A stretch of DNA of 57,410 nucleotides, counting the filler, from Basidiobolus ranarum (taxonomy: Eukaryota): NCBI GenBank assembly GCA_040143965.1. It is 7 parts of 7 records of this genome, joined end to end, with 100 filler letters (N's around TTAATTAATTAA, not from the genome) between each part and the next. Parts side by side here need not be neighbours in the genome. Positions count along the whole stretch, not along the records: positions 1 to 8,129 come from JASJQH010007889.1; 6 more parts are not named here. One strand, 5' to 3'. A model generated the notes under the pieces. That model ran no database searches. It saw only the letters and a list, made by a program, of their open reading frames with translations, and had not been told where the DNA came from. Each line of letters begins with the position of its first letter. Positions within the stretch are counted from its first letter, which is position 1. Both the position numbers and the translations under genes were made by a program. Below, one piece after another: positions 1 to 34,047 of this stretch.

Positions 1-1
1 C

Positions 2-400
2 ACTCCTCCAAAACGCAAGCCTGATGTTATTGTCCAAGAAAAAACCAATGAAAACCAAGCCAAACTCTATCCTCTTAATGGTGATCTCAACCCATTACAT
101 ATTGATCCCGAAATGTCAGCAATGGGTGGGTTTGATGTCCCAATTCTTCATGGACTTTGTTCCATGGGAATTGCTGGTAAACATGTGTTCCAAACGTACG
201 GAAACAACAAGCCAGATGCCTTTAAATCAGTCAAAGTGCGCTTTGCCAAACATGTGTTCCCTGGCGAGACCTTGGAAACTCAGATGTGGAAAGAAGGCAA
301 CAAGGTCATATTCCAGGTTCGTGTTGTTGAAAGAGATGTTATTGCTGTCGCCAATGCCGCAGTTGAGTTGAACATCTCAAGTCCTTCTTCCAAATTGTAA
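2..400 (+). CDS. FOX2: Peroxisomal multifunctional beta-oxidation enzyme (MFE-2/Fox2), C-terminal MaoC-type hydratase-2 domain; 5'-truncated
   Basis: Frame open from base 2: ...[18 protein letters not shown]...[10 protein letters not shown]...[22 protein letters not shown]. This is the hydratase-2 motif GDxNPLH. The protein ends in the PTS1 signal SKL. Confidence 0.9.
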
Positions 401-1240
401 ATGTTGATATTTTTTGCGCACTATCTCCACCCTCCTACGTTCATTTAGGCGAGATGAACTAAACACCATCGTGAATATTTGTATCGTTTTCCATGAAACT
501 CAGAAATACTGTAACACCGATCTCAATTCGCTAATAAAGCTAATTGCAATTCTCTCATGATTCCTGTTGACTTATCCAACAACTAGAAATTGGCAGTCAC
601 CTGAAGGTGAGTTTTAGTCCATTTTGGCCAAACCTGCATAAATATGAACGCGGTTTTCGCATTTCACGATGATAAGGGAGTTAGCGCATGGCAAGGCAAG
701 ATGATTGGTTTTATTGAGAGCGTGACTTGTTTTTTGTATCTCTTGTGATTTGGAGATCCAATCCCTGATATTTCCAATTGGTGTATAGTTCCTATTCAAG
801 GTGAGTCCTCTTCAATTCCAGAGAAGCATTTGAACAATGTGACTATCAGATTGTTTACCAAAAATAATAAATTACTTAAGAGTTACTTCCCAAGGTTTAT
901 CGATGACTATTGGTCCTAGTGCTAATTCCAAGTCAATTAGTTATAAGGACTTTCTCATATATGTGACTGATTAATGCGAGTTGGTGCTTTTCCCTTAAAA
1001 GGCTTATGTGTGAATGGAATCATAGTCACATTATAGGGGTTGCAAAAAGAGGGTACAACAGTACATAGCACTGCTTGTACATCCCTAGTTTCATTCATGA
1101 TTGGAATTCAAGAGACACAATGAAGGTCCTATTGCTCGTGACCTGCTTTTTTTATTCCATCTCTAGCTACTTGTTCGACCCATTAAAAGAACAGTCTTTT
1201 CTACTTTATACAGTTTCGTTTTACTTCGAATTCAACGAAC

Positions 1241-1721
1241 ATGCTACCCGCAAAGCAAAACAAGATTGACCTAAGTGTAAGTAGAGGATAGTTACATAGG
1301 TCTGAGTCTCTTGGCTATACCATAGATATTGATTCTTTTATTGTAGAAACTAACTGAGGAAGAGCGCAGGATCTTCAAAATGTATGGCCGACTTCCTAAT
1401 GGCAAAGACCTGGTAGCCCAAAGGTTGAAGGTAACGATATTCCTTACTAGCTTTATGTTATCTCACACACACCAGTCTCTGAATGTCTGTATGATTTTGT
1501 AGGACCGTAAATATTTCGACTCGGGTGATTACGCTCTTAAGAAAGCTGGCCAAGTGTCAACTGAAGTTGGTTTACAACATCCTTCACCAGAGAAAATTCC
1601 TCATGCTAGTCCGATAGCAGCAACTAGTTCGCTCCAGAAAGAAACCAGCTTAAACCAAGTAACTGCTACATCAACTCCACATATTGAAAAATATGGACCA
1701 CCACCAGTATTCAATTTTTGA
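1241..1721 (+). CDS. IGO1: Endosulfine / Igo1-ENSA family PP2A inhibitor (3 exons; not in the ORF track)
   Basis: Exons 1241-1276, 1347-1430 and 1503-1721 with GTAAGT/GTAACG...TAG introns translate to MLPAKQNKIDLSKLTEEERRIFKMYGRLPNGKDLVAQRLKDRKYFDSGDYALKKAG..., which contains the signature KYFDSGDY. Confidence 0.92.
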
Positions 1722-2410
1722 CCCGTTGAAAGATGTGATCAAGAAGACTCATCTCCAGACTCGTTTAATCTATTCAGAGATCAAAAAATCTCGATTGTGT
1801 CATGGTTTTCTTCCTTCTACTAGTTAGCATTTGACTGTAGCTGATGTCACGTCTCCGAGGTTTCCAGCTGGGAAGATCAAACGATGATTTATCATCATAT
1901 TCGATCTTTGGTTTCCTTTCGCAACATTCTTATCCTTGAATTTATGCATCGAGCTTGTTCTGTTTGAAATATATCCGACATTTATTCTCTAAAATTTATG
2001 ATCCTTTTCAATCCTAAGAACTCGGATTAATCCCAAATCATGAATAATAAATAAGCAATGAAATAAGAAACGATGTCTACTCTTTGATGTACAAACATCT
2101 GTTGAAGGGCCAATGCAAACTTTCAATCGTTTCCATGAGTATATATATGATACTTCCAATGCTTGCTTAAACAGAGTGAATGGAGTTTTTCATGCTGTAC
2201 GCAGTTTAATTATAGTCTATAGTCTATATATATATAATTGAAGTCACTAAAGATACACAAAGATACTTCTACTTCCATCAAATATATGAATAATCAAAGC
2301 AAAGCTAATGCAAATTGCACTTTGAGGAATTACTAAAAATTACCAACGATAATAACGAACAAAATTATTTCAGTAAAATATGACTTACTGTTTAGACTGC
2401 CATGATCTTT

Positions 2411-5400
2411 TTACATGACCCTTGTCTGTTTCGTTAGCTCCATCACTTGCATTTGAGAGCGTTGAAGTTCAGATTTCATCTTACGAAGCATCGACTCTGA
2501 ATCCCGGACGTACTTTATAGCACGTTGGGTATCTTTTTCCATTTTGGCCGATTTCTTCTCTGATTCTTGTAGTTGTCGTTCAAGCTGTTGAACTTTATTT
2601 TGGTTGATTTGGATACGGGATTCCGAATCGCTGTTGAACAAGGAAGGTTTAGGACGTGATTGACGCAGCAGTTCTTCAAGAGAGTTGGCTTTGACTTGCA
2701 TTGCTAAAAATTGATCCTTTAATCTAGCAATTTCATGTTCATCTCCAGCAACTCTTGCTTTCGCTGCCTTCTCAGAATCGATTAGCGGCTGCTGCTTCTC
2801 AACAATGGTGTGCAATTCCTGCAAAGTATTTTTGTACTTCTCTTGTAATTCTTTGTTATGGCACTTTGTTTGGTTGAGGCGATCTTGTAATGATTCAAGT
2901 TGTTGTCGTAATTTAATATTGTCTTCTGGAGATTTAAGATCAATATTTAACTTGTCCGAAGCAAGTGCTACAAGCCTATGTGGGTCCAGACCTCCAGCAC
3001 AGCTGAACTCTTGCATCATATTTGCTAGAGTGGTGATTTTCAAACGAGCCCCTTCGAGTTCCAAGGATTCCGCTCTCAATAGATCCTGAGAATTCATTAA
3101 CTGTAACTTCATTTCATAAATGTTGTCTTGTGCATCTGCTAATCGAAGGCGGGACTCACTGAGTTCTGACTGTACGTCATAGTGTTTCTTCTCCAAGTCT
3201 TCTACCTTTTGTGTTAAAGCATAGTTCTCTTTTTCAATTCTATCGATAACATCACATGATTCTTCTTTTACTTGAAGTAAAAGACTAACTTCTCCCTCGA
3301 GCTCTGCCACACGATAATTGGCACGGGTTAACTTTTCCTCAATTCCTTCCTCAGAATGATTCTTGGAGTTATTGAAGACTTGTGAGATGGAGTCCAGGGA
3401 CTCCAATTGTTGCTTAGTAGTGAGCCACAAAGTTTCCATCTCTCCGGCTTGGAAATGGGCTCTAGCCAACTCCTCAGATTTCTGTTCAATAGTTTTGCGT
3501 AGCTCAATAGATTCTTTCTCGAGGGCTTGGATTTCCTGTTGCGCGTCCATCCACATCCTTTCTGCTTCATTAGCGCGTTCGTTAGCGGCACTCACTGCAT
3601 TAGATGCCAGCTCTCTAGCTTGCCTTTCTTGAGCGGATGTTTCCTCCAATGATGCTAAACGTTCAAGAATTACCGTAGCTTCGGTCTCTTTCGCGTATAG
3701 CGTGGCTTCAGCTTTGGAAGCTCTCGTATTTGCATTGGAAGCTGTTAACTGAGCTTTCTTGAGAGCATCTTCCAAAGTAGTGGTTTTTTCTCTAAGCATT
3801 CGACAGTTTTCTTCCGCTTCCACCACTCTATTTAGAGTATTCCTAGAATTCTCTTCCATTAATAATCGATTTTCTTGATCCTTAGCAGATACCTGTGTTT
3901 GAAGATCAATTCTAGATACAAGTGATTGATTCTCAGTGAGAGCTTTGACAAGGCGCTTTTCTAATTCGACAACACGATCCTGCTCGATCTTACATAATTC
4001 TTCAGTAGAGGAACTTTTGATAGCGGATATTTTCATTCTTAAATAGGCTGCCTCTTGTAGAGCGACCTGTCGACTCTTTTCACCATCGGAAATTTTACGA
4101 GCGGCATGTTCACAATTTTGGGTCATATGTGCCTAGGAATGTATTTGAAGTTAATTGATTGTGGAAAAGAAGGATTAGATTTTTGTGGAAAGAATAGCAA
4201 CCTGTGCTTTACTTAATTGATCTTTCAAGAAAAGAAGTGCTTGAAGAAGTTGAATCTTTTCCGGATCTTTCTGATCATTTGGCAAAGGTTTCAAGTATGG
4301 AGAAATGGACGCTTCTTTGGTGGAGCAGTCAGATCTCTCTGAAACCATCTTCTCTACATTACTCCATAATGCAGTTTTAGAGGCCGCATGCTTGGTGGTA
4401 TCTTTGCTAACCTTTAATATTTCAGAGGAGCATTCTTCTTGCTTCGTTAGATGCTTGGGTGGAATTCCCGAAACTTTACCTTCCTCCTCAAAGTCCGAGT
4501 CATTCGGTAACCTCTCTTCAAAGATGGAACTAGCATTTTCAGGATAACTATTCAACGAAATATTTGAAGCCATACCATGACTATTAAGACGCTGACCAGT
4601 TGGATCTCGCATGGTAATGGTGTCTTCTTGTATTCTCTCCTTCGAAGAAACCTCTAATGCAGGAGCGCTTTGACCATATGAAGACAGCTTTGAATCTGAA
4701 TCTATGAGAGAAGGTATGTTCTCCGTAGTTCGAGTAGCAGGATGCTTTCGATGGGTATTCAAAGGAGTATTTTTGTTTGAAGAAGGATGTTTTAAAGCAT
4801 GACTACGCGTACTTCCCGGTTCCGTTGACCGGGGCTGATGAACCTTTTCGGTATTTAAAGGAATGAATGTCGCAAACTGACGTAAATGATCTCTAGATCT
4901 TTCAATATTTATCTTGACAGCTGTGTCCTCGCTATTAGCGGTCGAATTTTGCAAATGGTTGGAATCACCAGAACGGATATGGTTATTCTCACGTTGAGAC
5001 GTATTCAATAGCTGGTTAGACTTGGTGATAGTACTGGAAGTAGTCGTGTATTGTCCTGGGGGGCCGGAATCCAAGCTAGTTTTTACATCATTGGGCTTCC
5101 CACCCTTGAAGGTGAAATTGGAAGGAGCTTGTAGGTGTGAGGGACTGTGAGCTCTGCTAATGTGTGGTATACCTCCAGGATTTTGCCCTGAAGAGCCATT
5201 GATTTGATTATGTTCCAATGGAGTTGGGCTAGGAGTCAACAATCGGTTAATTTCATAATCATCATTATCAGAGTTAGATGAACTTCTGCCATATTCAACA
5301 GGACTAGGTGGAGGAAGATAGTTTCTTATTTGCTTCTCATGTGCTCCATTATGCCCACAATGCTCATATGCATTAGAGAAGTATTCACCACCTGAATGAA

Positions 5401-6835
5401 GTTCCACATAACCTCCAACTTTCGCTAAAATCAAAGTTCCTTCCATTAAACAAACTATGCATATCCAGAAACACTACAGTAAGGGTACCTACCTGTGTCA
5501 AGAATATGGACCACCGACTGATTAGCTACTGAGTCATATTCGCCGACTAATACATGGATTTTCTCTTGAATAACACAAGTTTTTATACTCTTTGGCAGTA
5601 CAGAGCCCAAATGAACGCTCGGAAGAACGAACCAAGTTCTCTCTAAATAAGTTTAGAAAATTAATGGACAAGCACTCAATGAGTTTTATATACTTTCAGT
5701 ACCTAAGAAATGAAATAGATAAACTTCGTTGAGGAACTGTCCAGATTCGTCTTGACCACCCAAGATAAACATGAAATCATTATGAACGCAAGCAGTGTGA
5801 CCTGCTCTTTTGGACGGTCCCCCTTTAGCTAGAATTTGTGACCAGATATTGAACTTTGGATCATAGCACCAAAGATCATCAAATGATTTATCCACATCAT
5901 TTCCACCAAAACTGCGTATGAATTAGGTTAGATATCCGGGATTCATAAATCTTACGATTCATTAGTGACTTACATGTAGATTTGATTTTTGTATACAACT
6001 GCTGAATGGCAAGCTCTTTCAGGTGGACTGTCATATCCAGAGGCGATATAATCCCAGTGTGGAGTCTGAGTAGATACTAAGTTGCAAGGCACGATTAATC
6101 ACTAGTATTAATTCAGATAGAAATCGTAGTTACATACATGACTTTGTATCAAAAGCAACTAAGTCATTGAAATAGTAATCATCCACTTGACCACCAAATA
6201 AATACATGGTTGACTCAATAGCAACTGCCGAATGATCTCTTCTTCCTACTAAAGAGTTGCTCTGCATAGGTAATCTGGTCCAAAGTTTACTTCCTACGAA
6301 CAATTTAATCTCTAACATGTAGAGTTTCAAAAGGCTTAACTCAATAACATACCTATATTAAGCGAGTACAATGAATCGTCCCAACGACTGTTCGTTGTTT
6401 CTCCTCCGAAAACTACCAATGAAACCTTGTATTAGCATAATGTATAAAATTATGGGTCTCTTTTTGGAATTCCCTTTCATACCTAGTAGATATCTTCCTA
6501 TATTCAATGCGGTATGTCCAGCTCTAGGGCAAGGAATCTCTCCAGAAGTTTTAGCTACTTCGACAGAAAGGTCGTCTATACGTATTTGTGATAATCAGTA
6601 CCTCAATAGATCGCTTTATGGTGGTATGAGTTGATCAATATTACTAACGTGAATCAATAATGTGCAAGTCGTTTTGAGGTATGTTCTCCATACTTCCAGC
6701 AAAGACATATATATCATCAAGAATTTCGCAAATACTGTAGTCTTGTCGTGGGAAAGGGGACTGTTTGTATATCTTCTTTTGGGTCCAGAGAGTCGAGTTG
6801 GAGGTGGATTTGGAGAATTTGGCGAGAAAAGGCAT
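2411..6835 (-). CDS. Kelch-repeat cell-polarity protein with long C-terminal coiled coil (Tea1/Kel1-like), multi-exon
   Basis: Short minus-strand exons at 5490-6835 encode kelch blades (GRRDHSAVAIESTMYLFGG, KRAGHTACVHNDFMFILGG). These are followed by a low-complexity linker (4175-5446 ORF) and a 571-aa heptad-rich coiled coil (2411-4126). Internal exon limits are approximate. Confidence 0.8.
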
Positions 6836-7475
6836 CGTGTTATTTTTTTAGTGAGAGGTTTTAGTGACTGCAGTTGATGTGGCTTTCGTAACTTATGGAA
6901 TTTACGCGTTTAACGTGAAAAAATTAATTCTTGGGGAAATAGAGGGAATTAGTTCTAAAAGGGTATCACAAGGTTTTATGTAGAAGATGATATTTGTATA
7001 GGTAGCAATACTAAAAGTACAAGAAATTATTTGATAATTGGAAGGCTGAGAGTTGAAAGACGCATGTTCTTTATAGTGAGCCCAGAGAGTAAGTGAAAAC
7101 TGCAAGATCAAGGTTGTGGAAGTATTACTAGTCAGAATTATCCTTTATTGCCTAATACATGCTCCAGGAAGGAAAGTGGAGCGCACATTAGGAAGTTAGG
7201 AAATGAACATGGCAGCCCATATTGCCTAAATCCGTTCGAAGCAATGTCTTAACAATGAGCATAGTACTTTACAGATTTATTAATTAAACTGCAGGTAAAA
7301 AATTCATTGAGCATGTTACTAGGATAGCATTACACCACCGACATTCATGCTCTGTACTAACATCGCTAACTCTCTTACAGAAACCAGCATAATTTTCCTC
7401 ACCAACGACAGCAAAGCAATGGTAATACTTGACAGATAAATTGCGCATCAATTTGCTATCACTAACGGCAGACAA

Positions 7476-8026
7476 GGGAAGGATACTATATTAATACTGG
7501 TAGGCTAGAAATGCAAAGTATCGTGAGCCCAATAGAGGCGTCGGAATGAGAAAAATACTAGCTAAAGAAGGCTTCCAGCTATACCTCCTTGAAGATTTTA
7601 AAACTCCAAGTCTGTGCCCTACTTACCAGAACGGTGAACTGGAAAAGTATAAAAAAGTAGAAAATCCTAGACCATATAAAAGACAAAAGTATCCTATTGT
7701 ATATCGTCACGGCCTTTTAAGGTAAATGCTTTTTACATGCAAGTAAAAAATTCCAAATTCAAACCTAAGTTCTGCTCAGGTGCAAAAACCAACAGTGTTT
7801 AAAGGTCGTGACTAATACTACATAAGTTTCTCTCCATCGTCTTTGGAATCGTGACCTGGCTGCTATTTTGAATTTTAGATACATCCTTTTTAACTTGCAC
7901 TCAAACCGAGAAAGATCAGAACGTTTTTGCAGATTGAAGGAACCTCTCTCCACCGGCTATAAAAGAAAGGGTATCTCATCAGCCAGCAGCAGTCGACCAA
8001 CGAAAAAAGCCAACAATCCTGTGTAG
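7476..8026 (+). pseudogene. Degenerate Fanzor (TnpB/Cas12-related RuvC nuclease), C-terminal half, relic A
   Basis: Manual translation: GKDTILILVG* /frameshift/ NAKYREPNRGVGMRKILAKEGFQLYLLEDFKTPSLCPTYQNGELEKYKKVENPRPYKRQKYPIVYRHGLLR [intron 7722-7779] CKNQQCLKVVTNTT*VSLHRLWNRDLAAILNFRYIL...RSERFCR...KRKGISSASSSRPTKKANNPV*. This fits the RuvC-II / zinc finger / RuvC-III (WNRD..A..N) layout of fungal Fanzor1. Confidence 0.85.
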
Positions 8027-8125
8027 TTATCGCAACACTAAACTTTTGATACAGAGTGTCTTTGAACACTTTTTCTTTTGCCATGTGTCTCCACTTCTCT
8101 CAGATTATTTTGGCGATCATCCCAT
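8027..8125 (+). ncRNA. Candidate omegaRNA scaffold / transposon right end of Fanzor relic A
   Basis: Lies directly 3' of the Fanzor stop. Contains a hairpin AGAGTGT-ctttga-ACACTTT (8053-8072) and ends ...GGCGATCATCCC|AT just before the contig break. Called by position only. Confidence 0.35.
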
Positions 8126-8129
8126 TTAT

Positions 8130-8229
8130 NNNNNNNNNNNNNNNNNNNNNNNNNNNNNNNNNNNNNNNNNNNNTTAATTAATTAANNNNNNNNNNNNNNN
8201 NNNNNNNNNNNNNNNNNNNNNNNNNNNNN
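8130..8229. other. Artificial contig linker
   Basis: 100 nt of N with a central TTAATTAATTAA (stops in all six frames); identical to five other linkers. Confidence 0.98.
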
Positions 8230-21802: not shown

Positions 21803-24572
21803 TGTTGAAATTAGCATTGCCTAAGCACCCATATAGTCATATATAGCTTAATACCTAGTTATCTCATAATTCACCAAGATATTATCAATTATTCTCAATT
21901 AAAATTTACTTAGGATATTTTTACCAACCTAGAAGTTCTCAAATATACAGATTTTTCAAACTTGTGCTAGAAGCCCCAAACTCTGCAAGCATGTTCATGG
22001 GACTTTCCTTAGCACATTCTACATGTTAGTCTGTATACATCTTGACAAAACTAAAAATGTCATCTTTCTACTCAATAAATCAATCAGTGAAAACCACCAA
22101 TTCCTCTGATTCTCCAAACCACTCTCAACAAGCTCCCAGGTACTTTAACAGGCTATGAGCCCCATGCTTCCACTCTCTGTAATGTCTACTTCTCAAATCT
22201 ATGGAACTTTTCCCTCTTCAGAAAAATTAGATAGAACCAATTATCAAGTTTGGAAAATTAAAATCAAAATGCTGCTGCAAGAAAAAGGACTTTGGGACAT
22301 TGTTGTAGGGGAAGAAAGCAATGCAAAACTATCTGAAACCAAAGTTTTACTCCAAGCTAAATAAGAATAAAGTGCCTTCAACACAATTTGTCTTAATGAT
22401 AAAGACAAATTGCGAATTCAATGTTCAAGAGCTAAAACTGCCAAGAAGGTATAGAAAGCCTTGGAAGACACCTACAAAACAAGTTCTGCTGCCAAGAAGA
22501 TGTTTCTAAGAAGACAATTCTTTAACTCAAAGATGAAACCAGGAGAAGGCATTAAATTGCTAATTAATAGAGTCACTATTTTAGTGGATGAAATGGATTG
22601 CATTGGAGTATCTACCACTGATCACAATATCATAGTTACAGTCCTGAATAGCCTCCTACATGAGTTTCAGAGCCTAGTAATGGCTCCAGAATCAATAACT
22701 GAAAATTTGACCTTAAATTATGTATTTGGCAGACCTCTGCATGAAGATTTATGCAAATTAGGATCCAACCAAAAGCATGAAGAAAATGCTTTAATAGGCT
22801 ATGGGAAACTTTCCTGTAAAGGTCAAAAGCACTTTAACAAGAAAATTAACACATTCTGTGATTACAGTAAAAGAACTTGCCATTTAAGCAAAGATTGCTT
22901 TGAAAGATTTGCAACAAAAGAAAAACATACTGAATCTGGAAATGTGGTTACAACAGAAGATCACTTGTTCATATCTGCTCCATCTCTGACTATCAACAAG
23001 GATTCCCTGATGTGGTATATTCATTCTGGAGACTCCCAACATTTCACAAATGAAAAACATTGGTTTGTGGATTATCAAGAAATCCCAATTAGAAAGGTTT
23101 TCATGGGAGATAACTGCACCTTGGATGCCATTGGAATGGGAACTATTCAAGTCAATTTAACTGGTGCTTCTGAAGAGAAAATGTATACTTATAAGGGTGT
23201 GCTACATGTTCCAGATATTGCCAAGAACTTAATATCTGTATGCAAGGCCACCTCAGAAGCACTAAAATTCAATTTTCACAAGTAATGATATACAATCACT
23301 GATCAAAATGGGAATTATCTTTGGGAGAAAAGAATCAGAGCTTGTACAAACTTACATATAATCCAAGAGGTTTATATGTAAATAAAAGTTACTCCAATCA
23401 AAAAACTATTCAATTATGGCATCAGAGCTTTGGCCATATTAGATTTGATTTTTGAGCAAAATGACAAAAATTGCCTAATTTTGGTAATTCAAATTGAACC
23501 AAAATGAAAATTTGCAAGGGTTATATATATGGAAAGCAGGTCAGGCAACTGCTCAAGAGCTCTGGGTTAATGAAATCTGTCAAAAAATTGGATTTAATTC
23601 ATTCAGATTTGTGTGGACCTATGCAAAATCTATCTTTAGGCAGAAAAAGATATTCATTTGCATTTATTGAAGATCATACAAGATACACTTGGGTCTACTT
23701 TATGGAAAGAAAAGAAGAAGCTCTCTGTATCTTTAGAGACTTTAAAACACTTGTGGAGACTCAAACTGGAACTAAAATCAAGAAAATATATAATGATAAT
23801 GGTGGACAATATACTTCAACACTATTTAAGCACTTTTGCAAAGTTCATGGAATTAAGCAAGAAACTACTGCCTCCTATTCACCTCAACAAAATGGAGCTG
23901 CTGAAAGAGCTAACAAGACTATAACAGAAGTGGCATGATATATGTCAAATGCACAAAATTTATCTCATCACTTTTGGGCAGAATCTGTGGCTACAGTGGT
24001 ACATCTGAAGAATAGGAGATTTACTAGAAATCTGTCTAACTCTACACCATATCAAGCTTGTTTTGGAGTTAAACCTGATGTAAAAAATTTGAGGATCTTT
24101 GGACACATTGCTTATGTCAAAATTCTGACTAAAATTGGTCTGAATTTGTTCAAAAAAAAGTAAGAAATCCATATTCCTGGGTTTTTACACTAAAACTAAG
24201 ACCTACAGATTCTATGATATCAAAATTTCCAAGTTAATCAAGTCCAGGGTTGTTTTGTTAAACAAAAATGGAAAATTTCATCCAAAATGACCTCAGATGG
24301 TGATGAAAATCAATTTTCTCATTCTCCAAACATTCAAATTGATTCAAACCAAAACAATGAAGAAAATAGCATTCCTGTGGACCCTTTAACCAACATTTTT
24401 CACTACTGAAGTGCCCAATACAATGCCAGAAGTTGTAGAACCTTTATCCCAAACCAGAAGATCAAATTGGATCAGAAATAGCCCAGATTACTATATCAAT
24501 GAGTTGCAAAATTGGGCCTATTCCTGCACAGCTCAAATATATGAACCCCTGACTGTAAAAGAGGCCCTGAAT
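21803..24572 (+). mobile_element. Degenerate Ty1/copia LTR retrotransposon (5' LTR, PBS, gag, protease, integrase; cut by the contig end before RT)
   Basis: LTR TGTTG..TTAACA at 21803-22150; PBS GGCTATGAGCCC. Gag NYQVWKIKIKMLL; protease relic WYIHSGDSQHF; integrase LDLIHSDLCGPM...NDNGGQY...SPQQNGAAERANKT; YEPLTVKEAL. Multiple stops and frameshifts. Confidence 0.93.
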
Positions 24573-32887: not shown

Positions 32888-34047
32888 CAAGACCCAAACA
32901 AAAAGAGAAAACTAGCATTTTCAAATTTGATCAGAACTGACGGTTTCACTGCAGATGTTGTCCTTCAAAAAAGTGTCAAAACAAATATTGATGACTATGC
33001 TCATTATTCTGGCCAAGATCTTGACATTTCGCTGGTGGGTGATGTTATGAAAAACGAAAACATGAACGATGTTTCTCTTTGTGCAATAGATCTTAATCGA
33101 AACCAAGTATTCGCTGCCTCGTATGGTGATGGTGATATTTCTCACCAGCTTAGAAGGTGTTCTACTTTGGAGTACTATACATACACAGGCTCCAAAAGGC
33201 ATGCAAAGCGGGAAATGGAAATAATGTGTGTTGAAGATATGAGCACCATTTTTAACCAACAGCAAAAACAGTTAACACTTCGTCATACTTACAATATGTC
33301 ACTTACATTTTGCTGCACCTTCAGAAAATACTGGCATTCAATCACCATTCTAGAGCCAAGAATCGTTTTCATTTGTACCAAGGCGTGCAAAGGGCTAGAC
33401 AAGAAATGGTAAACATTTTGGTTAACAGTGGTAGAAAGTATAATAAATCAAAACGAAAAAACACAAAGAAGAATAGGAAGAAAAGAAAGAGGGAATAAGA
33501 AAGAAACATGCAAACTATAGCAGTAAACAAGAAGCACAAATAAATTCAAAGTCCAGGAAAGATAGAAGTGATTACCATATTCATTTTAGTGTTTTTTTAG
33601 AAGAGCCACCAGATACTGGAAGCCAGAGCAATTCTAACAACATAAAGACAAGTTGTCCATCATATCTTCCGGTAATGGAATGTTTGGAAAAGATTCAGTC
33701 AAGTTCAACGGCCTCAGAACTGGGGTCACTGGGGTACTTGGGCGTCAGCTTAAATACAGACAAAAATCTGATGATTTATTACTTGCTATTGTAGACGAAT
33801 TTCGTACTTCACAGTCTGTTTTTATTTTACGATTATACATCTAACACTTTTACTCATATAGACATGCCATTCATGTAATGAAATGTCTCCCATTGAAGTA
33901 ATCACTGATTTAAATAGTGTTCTCACTTGCAAAAGTTGCGGAATGATATAGCAACGTGATGTCAATGCTTCAAAGGACATCTTCAAGATTTCCAAAGACG
34001 TAATCAGAGGTCATGGGCGCCCAACAGCGTTTTCTCGAAGTCAGTAA
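32888..34047 (+). pseudogene. Degenerate Fanzor (eukaryotic TnpB-like RNA-guided nuclease), relic B; 5'-truncated by the contig start
   Basis: FSNLIRTDGF...CAIDLNRNQVF (RuvC-I D, 33089-91)...RRCSTLEYYTYTG /frameshift/ TAKT...RFHLYQGVQRARQEMVNIL...IISSGNGMFG...AIVDEFRTSQ (RuvC-II E, 33797-99) [intron relic to 33861] TCHSC...LTCKSCGMI*QRDVNASKDI (RuvC-III D, 33958-60)...GHGRPTAFSRSQ*. Confidence 0.9.

Follow-up and report, generated by a model that had tools for sequence, protein, structure and literature searches.

Gene content of the analysed stretch

We analysed a stretch of 57,410 nucleotides from an assembly of Basidiobolus ranarum (below, the window), which consists of seven pieces of about 8.1 kb each, separated by linkers of the form N44 + TTAATTAATTAA + N44 (e.g. 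at 8130-8229, and at five other junctions). The features found in it are listed in Table 1. Relic A, a decayed Fanzor gene, occupies the right end of piece 1 (positions 1-8129), approximately 460 bp upstream of the Kelch-repeat gene and in the opposite orientation. A second decayed gene of the Fanzor/TnpB type, relic B, was found in another piece. Where a feature stops with its piece, as relic A does on the right and relic B on the left, the cut is due to the layout of the pieces and not to biology.

Table 1. Positions of the features in the window
Feature	Position	Strand	Evidence and remarks
Fox2-type (peroxisomal multifunctional enzyme) MaoC domain, end fragment	2-397	+	Pfam
Kelch-repeat gene, long	2414-6909 (ORFs)	-	Kelch Pfam matches on 5689-5922 and 6133-6357
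Relic A, degraded upstream coding remnant	7372-7503	+	matches the Rhizopus Fanzor1 protein P0004 at approximately residues 377-417; read in three frames and compared with P0001, P0002 and P0004
Relic A, exon 1, open remnant	7504-7721	+	73 codons including the split Arg; phmmer against PDB, local HMM
Relic A, GT-AG intron (58 nt)	7722-7779	+	sequence; splits Arg codon AG/G; position conserved across the family, ROr-3 included
Relic A, exon 2 remnant	7780-8026	+	CKNQQC 7781-7798, TAA 7823-7825, WNRD, basic Ser-rich tail, TAG 8024-8026
Relic A, putative omega-RNA scaffold remnant	8021-8070	+	hairpin 8021-8038, loop UUAUCG; weak by-eye evidence
Relic A, 3' non-coding region	8071-8129	+	aligns by eye to the 3' region of ROr-3 and the inner part of its right 133-bp TIR; two deletions
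Copia-type LTR retrotransposon fragment	22149-24160	+	Pfam DUF4219, Retrotran_gag_2, Pol_BBD, rve, SH3-like
Relic B, second decayed Fanzor/TnpB-type gene	32888-34047	+	motif scan, Pfam; start of piece 5

When the 132 stop-to-stop ORFs of at least 70 amino acids of the whole window were compared with Pfam, no TnpB-type match was observed, and all recognisable matches belonged to host genes or to a copia-like element. The Copia-type fragment is probably decayed too, as its domains are spread across several ORFs in different frames.

The Fox2 fragment at the beginning of piece 1 is 84% identical to its counterpart in Basidiobolus meristosporus and 78% identical to that of Rhizopus arrhizus, and no match exceeds 84%. 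Together with the B. ranarum relative of relic A described below, it suggests that the host of relic A is Basidiobolus-like and not Rhizopus, Fox2 being very conserved and thus discriminating weakly. The same fragment matches three different proteins of B. meristosporus, with 84%, 80% and 79% identity. This is consistent with reports of extensive paralogy in Basidiobolus, and it implies that the fragment does not come from the closest copy of the B. meristosporus strain.

Coding remnant of relic A and its lesions

The original prediction placed at 7476-8026 of the plus strand a Fanzor-type peptide interrupted by a clean 58-nt GT-AG intron, a frameshift and stop codons, with RuvC-II reading ED instead of DE and one zinc-finger cysteine replaced by tyrosine. 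All these elements are present, and the peptide corresponds to the C-terminal approximately 160 residues of a Fanzor1 nuclease. The core interval is real, but the relic is larger, extending from about 7372 to at least 8129: detectable homology begins at about 7372-7402 and, as judged by eye, goes on after the stop codon as far as the piece extends. Besides this 3' extension, the prediction overlooked the type of the element, that of ROr-3 of Rhizopus oryzae, and its nearest relatives in another fungal phylum.

In frame +1, positions 7504-7722 encode ARNAKYREPNRGVGMRKILAKEGFQLYLLEDFKTPSLCPTYQNGELEKYKKVENPRPYKRQKYPIVYRHGLLR. The intron begins with GT at 7722-7723 and ends with AG at 7778-7779; its removal completes the arginine codon, joining HGLLR to CKNQQC, and the reading continues as CKNQQCLKVVTNTT. 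The two motifs are contiguous in the homologues, as they are in relic A after splicing. Beyond the TAA codon, the unchanged frame gives VSLHRLWNRDLAAILNFRYILFNLHSNRERSERFCR (VSLHRLWNRDLAAILNFRYIL) through to the terminal TAG, and in tblastn the segment 7772-8035 is read in one frame. The piece with CKNQQC and the piece with WNRD are separated only by the in-frame stop and not by a frameshift. The terminal TAG coincides with the stop position of the Rhizopus proteins, the last residue (577) of protein P0004 being aligned by tblastn to position 8023.

The degraded region upstream of exon 1 is reached in tblastn by P0001 (to 7402) and by P0020 (to 7438). Frameshift-aware alignment and hand comparison with the DNA of ROr-3 placed three stop codons here (7390-7392, 7423-7425, 7501-7503) and two changes of frame, one near 7440 and the other near 7499. 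The latter is the one predicted originally; it separates GKDTILIL, read from 7476, from W*ARNAKY, read from 7498, and corresponds to an 8-nt deletion relative to ROr-3 (hand comparison), by which the conserved Gly-Asn of GNWS is removed. In total, relic A contains four in-frame stops, two of which (at 7501 and 7823) lie within the interval predicted originally, and two frameshifts (at about 7440 and 7499).

No Fanzor homology was found upstream of about 7372. Almost all collected family proteins (173 of 174) match the window only within 7402-8035, and the local profile constructed from 31 long members, applied to 2416 ORF pieces of the window, matches only with its positions 556-707 of 828. 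Since all these matches are confined to the C-terminal part, approximately 375 N-terminal codons, including RuvC-I, are missing. Neither inverted repeats nor a target duplication nor a second copy were observed by repeat search and self-BLASTN in 6800-8129 and in the window.

Two pairs of direct repeats, 7072-7084/7519-7531 (13 nt) and 7290-7305/7738-7753 (16 nt), have a spacing of 447-448 nt, as might be expected of an older upstream duplicate. This candidate was rejected as a chance similarity: the local alignment score of 27 was equalled by 5 of 200 shuffles, and identity along the diagonal is 35%.

Assignment to Fanzor1

As originally proposed, relic A is identified as a Fanzor relic, more precisely as one of Fanzor1. 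This follows from direct matches to two experimentally characterised proteins with solved structures, the Fanzor1 nucleases of Parasitella parasitica (PpFz1) and Spizellomyces punctatus (SpuFz1), and from a profile of the relic's own family, which finds its relatives. When PDB was searched with phmmer, the segment 7504-7722 matched PpFz1 (9cf0, E 3e-18) and SpuFz1 (8gkh, E 2e-5), and the segment 7826-8023 matched the C-terminus of PpFz1 (E 4.4e-4). Among the 2416 ORF pieces, the local HMM of 31 long members recognised 7504-7722 with E 9.8e-34 (positions 556-628 of 828) and the exon 2 piece with E 4e-12. Chance similarity is excluded.

When the 73-aa piece was used in a word-based search, two proteins out of 12 candidates were retained, P0001 (B. 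ranarum, 81% identity) and P0002 (JGI, 63%). Searching with P0002 led to 25 longer proteins, 24 of them from Rhizopus arrhizus, R. delemar and R. microsporus and one from Thamnidium. Finally, when 1.84 billion proteins were searched with a three-sequence profile, 1344 representatives matched at E<=1e-3.

PpFz1 (PDB 9cf0; PMC11423790) has the same C-terminal arrangement as relic A, that is, RuvC-II-alt, zinc ribbon (TNB) and RuvC-III. Unlike relic A, it is active as a nuclease, has 849 residues and contains an FRI insertion, and its 3' end is, by eye, closer to ROr-1 than to ROr-3.

Nothing relevant was found by Pfam in the pieces of relic A, in P0001 and P0002 or in the intact Rhizopus proteins. 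In particular, the model PF07282 (Cas12f1-like TNB / OrfB_Zn_ribbon) has no match to the pieces of relic A at E<=10, and the intact Rhizopus relatives are likewise unmatched at E<=0.01. Thus the silence of this model on relic A is uninformative, since intact Rhizopus Fanzor1 proteins are missed too; the Pfam TnpB zinc-ribbon model has a blind spot and does not cover the Fanzor1 clade of relic A. A weak match of relic A and its relatives to EF-hand_like (E 0.14-0.19) was dismissed.

Conserved motifs

The motif of Fanzor1 was described as D-X(125,275)-[TS]-[TS]-X-X-[C4 zinc finger]-X(5,50)-RD (Bao & Jurka 2013, PMC3627910). The RuvC-I aspartate is absent from relic A because the corresponding region is missing, not because it is mutated. 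In the middle part of the motif, relic A reads T-P-S-L-C-P-T-Y...C-K-N-Q-Q-C, whereas the Rhizopus proteins read T-S-S-L-C-P-S-C...C-K-N-Q-Q-C. The second [TS] position is proline, and three of the four cysteines are retained: of the first zinc-ribbon pair, one Cys is kept at 7615-7617 and the other is replaced by Tyr at 7624-7626 (CPTY against CPSC in the relatives). These mismatches are read as decay of a former match. The C-terminal RD of RuvC-III is present in WNRD (Asp 7853-7855), which aligns with LWNRDQAA of PpFz1.

In Fanzors, the canonical glutamate of RuvC-II is replaced by Gly or Pro, and an alternative conserved glutamate is situated downstream (Jiang et al. 2023, PMC10530073). The relatives of relic A have the Gly in GNWS and the alternative Glu in LLDEF. 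In relic A, the Gly codon falls inside the 8-nt deletion and the alternative Glu is shifted by one place in LLEDF (Glu 7591-7593, Asp 7594-7596). The ancestral state of relic A would thus fit the rearranged RuvC site, whereas its present state does not.

Relic A is non-functional, inert DNA. It cannot work, since the first approximately 375 codons (REC, WED and RuvC-I) are missing, four stops and two frameshifts interrupt the remaining part, the Gly of GNWS and one zinc ligand are lost, and the alternative catalytic Glu has moved from its place. The product of an intact copy would be a RuvC endonuclease guided by an omega-RNA, and this RNA would be specified by the 3' end of the gene and the sequence following it.

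Comparison with ROr-3

Four Fanzor1 families are listed for Rhizopus oryzae by Bao & Jurka (2013, PMC3627910). One of them, ROr-3 of R. oryzae RA 99-880, is 2862 bp long and present in 16 copies, has 133-bp TIRs and a TA duplication, and carries a two-exon gene for a Fanzor1 of 720 aa. Relic A was aligned by hand to approximately the last 900 bp of the printed ROr-3 sequence, and small errors are possible in the counts given here.

The first exon (here 7476-7721) is identical to ROr-3 at 209 of 246 positions, with the 8-nt deletion in relic A, and the second at 202 of 247, with deletions of 12 and 6 nt; overall DNA identity of the exons is about 83%. Both genes consist of two exons with the intron after HGLLR, the site in ROr-3 being located by eye. 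The intron site is identical, the intron lengths are 58 nt in relic A and 64 nt in ROr-3, and the intron ends match at 25/28 nucleotides (5') and 14/16 nucleotides (3'). The TAA at 7823-7825 corresponds to AAA (Lys) in ROr-3. Mismatches in exon 2 are distributed over codon positions 1, 2 and 3 as 12:12:21 (hand count), which indicates largely relaxed constraint.

The coding order, the single intron site, the stop position, the Ser-rich basic C-terminal tail and the 3' hairpin loop UUA(C/U)CG are common to relic A and ROr-3. With the relatives of ROr-3 from R. arrhizus and R. delemar (P0003-P0019), the amino acid identity of relic A is 67% over 154 residues. On the other hand, only the last approximately 760 of 2862 bp are represented in relic A, which has stops, frameshifts and deletions of 8, 12 and 6 nt, the substitutions of ED for DE and of Tyr for Cys, and an upstream insertion in common with the B. 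ranarum copy; it also resides in a host of another phylum. The region from about 7372 to 8129 on the plus strand thus appears to be the dead, 5'-truncated last quarter of a ROr-3-type Fanzor1 DNA transposon, a reading to which we assign a probability of about 0.9.

3' non-coding region and candidate guide RNA

The omega-RNA of PpFz1 starts with a 7-bp stem-loop (Xu et al. 2024, PMC11423790, Table S3). The loop of the hairpin at 8021-8038 resembles, by eye, this stem-loop 1 and the 3' ends of ROr-1, ROr-2 and ROr-3, and short motifs in common with ROr-3 are seen, also by eye, 3' of it. The region 8021-8070 is a probable remnant of a guide-RNA (omega-RNA) scaffold. The predicted fold of 8008-8080 is no better than that of shuffled sequences (z -0.02; 86 of 200 shuffles folded equally well), and no matching Rfam family was found in 7300-8129 at E<=10, ctRNA_p42d (17 bits) and cyano-S1 (15.2 bits) being at the level of chance.

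At the very end of the piece, 23 of the last 32 nucleotides to 8129 match a stretch of the ROr-3 TIR (hand comparison). The right end of relic A lies beyond the end of the piece and the left end is absent, and the visible part of the TIR is its inner stretch only.

A second Fanzor lineage

The first ORF of relic B (32888-33409) contains CAIDLNRNQVFAAS, and the next one, extending to 33817, contains LLLAIVDEFRTSQS. They are followed by a 44-nt GT-AG intron (33818-33861), after which the sequence reads TCHSC...LTCKSCGMI, a stop codon, and QRDVNASKDIF... to 34047. The gene retains the RuvC-I-like CAIDLNRN, DEFRTS, an intact CxxC...CxxC and RD, and has one in-frame stop. With X at this stop, it scores 28.7 bits with PF07282, above the curated cut-off of 26.3.

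Both relics are decayed genes of the Fanzor/TnpB type with a short GT-AG intron. However, the intron of relic B precedes the first CxxC, whereas that of relic A lies between the two zinc-ribbon pairs; the RuvC-I region is kept in relic B and missing in relic A; and PF07282 matches B and not A. No BLASTP alignment between equivalent pieces of the two relics was observed at E<=100, and matches of the family A profile to relic B were insignificant (E 0.53-65), though colinear. The absence of such an alignment, the insignificance of the profile matches and the different intron sites support the presence of two distinct Fanzor lineages in the genome, both copies seen being dead. The two lineages of the original prediction are thus upheld, but the term "unrelated", used there for the two relics, should be replaced by very distantly related within Fanzor/TnpB.

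In ESM Atlas, the first ORF of relic B is placed beside a Mucoromycota cluster (score 0.98), 25% of whose members have DUF8286, a domain that also occurs in Rhizopus Fanzor1 proteins. Comparison of relic B with solved structures gave no Fanzor match, and no family close to its motifs was found in the protein file of Bao & Jurka (PMC3627910).

Phylogeny and origin of relic A

The closest relative of relic A is the B. ranarum hypothetical protein K7432_007251 (P0001, 181 aa), with 81% identity over the 73-aa piece and 83% over 132 columns. Both have, in contrast to the Rhizopus proteins, extra residues before AKNLREKFGN, and both have lost the zinc cysteine. P0001 differs from relic A in being annotated as a gene, in having DQ where relic A has ED, and in having Phe in place of the zinc Cys. 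The spliced peptide of relic A (154 aa, X at the stop) has a full-length identity of 71% with P0001, 66.9% with P0003, P0004 and P0006 of R. arrhizus/delemar, and 40-50% with most other members of the family.

In the carefully constructed tree of 32 rows, most of which are representative sequences, relic A is grouped with P0001 (support 100/99). This pair is situated inside a clade of 16 rows from R. arrhizus/delemar (98/81), and R. microsporus is outside (98/96). A quick tree of 73 rows agrees with this. In the AU test, a single group of the 14 named Rhizopus rows, chosen after a tree had been inspected, was not rejected (p 0.086), and the pair may branch beside the Rhizopus copies, as their sister group, and not from within them.

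These observations point to horizontal transfer. The element would have reached a Basidiobolus-like lineage from a Rhizopus-like mucoralean donor and then decayed. We consider such a transfer likely, since relic A falls inside the Rhizopus clade while the linked host gene is closest to Basidiobolus, and since alignable intron and 3' non-coding DNA are unexpected after the split between phyla. It is also fairly likely that the transfer of the ROr-3-type element was recent, as suggested by the intron, the 3' guide-RNA region and the terminal repeat, which are alignable at approximately 75-89%, and that remnants persist in at least two Basidiobolus genomes. A transfer between phyla fits the transposon-mediated gene transfer suggested for the group of Parasitella and Rhizopus Fanzors by Xu et al. 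(2024, PMC11423790).

One alternative is vertical descent, that is, an old Fanzor1 subfamily present in the ancestor of Mucoromycota and the Basidiobolus lineage, retained by Rhizopus and Basidiobolus, lost elsewhere and only recently dead here. Fanzor1 is indeed widespread in early-diverging fungi (PMC3627910), there are many paralogous lineages (1344 representatives), and monophyly of the Rhizopus rows is not rejected, as noted above. However, across phyla the intron and the 3' non-coding region would be expected to be saturated, whereas by the hand counts both can still be aligned with ROr-3. Moreover, the path in the tree from relic A to R. delemar P0006 is 0.41, about like that from R. 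microsporus P0020 to P0006 (approximately 0.32, i.e. 0.24+0.062+0.02), and other Mucorales members are merely 40-50% identical. Hence we regard vertical descent as unlikely.

Very unlikely, too, is a living short gene, i.e. a domesticated C-terminal piece of Fanzor comparable to the 181-aa model P0001, which is an annotated protein covering the matching region. Four stops and two frameshifts in relic A argue against this, as do the exon 2 mismatches to ROr-3 at all codon positions (hand count). P0001 itself, besides DQ for DE and Phe for the zinc Cys, omits 22 residues holding RuvC-III. That the fragment is Rhizopus DNA in a contaminated or chimeric assembly, as might be thought given that the nearest intact relatives are all from Rhizopus, is hardly credible, because relic A is broken in ways absent from the Rhizopus proteins and is just about 83% identical to ROr-3 at the DNA level, the Basidiobolus-closest Fox2 fragment is on the same 8.1-kb piece, and another B. 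ranarum assembly has an annotated copy that is diverged (83% over 132 columns).

In the literature library searched, no paper joins Fanzor and Basidiobolus, and the copy lists in two supplementary files of Jiang et al. (2023, PMC10530073) contain no Basidiobolus, Rhizopus or Parasitella. Relic A itself is inert, and its family has been known since 2013, with a structural characterisation following in 2024. It is of value as a marker, by which a Fanzor1 element of the Rhizopus type is located in the genome of a Basidiobolus-like fungus. If the horizontal transfer is true, it would be a documented case of a transposon with an RNA-guided nuclease crossing between fungal phyla. The similarity of the intron and flank makes this directly testable with whole genomes.

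Gene models of the family

The model of P0001 aligns to 7402-8035 of the window, and its RuvC-III stretch has been spliced out. Most likely, K7432_007251 is a mis-annotated transposon pseudogene. In the collected family (P0001-P0174), 137 gene models extend as far as the intron site, and 19 of these terminate no more than one residue away from it. It would seem that in many public annotations of the Fanzor1 clade of relic A the short intron is overlooked, and the protein is cut off before the second half of the zinc ribbon and RuvC-III.
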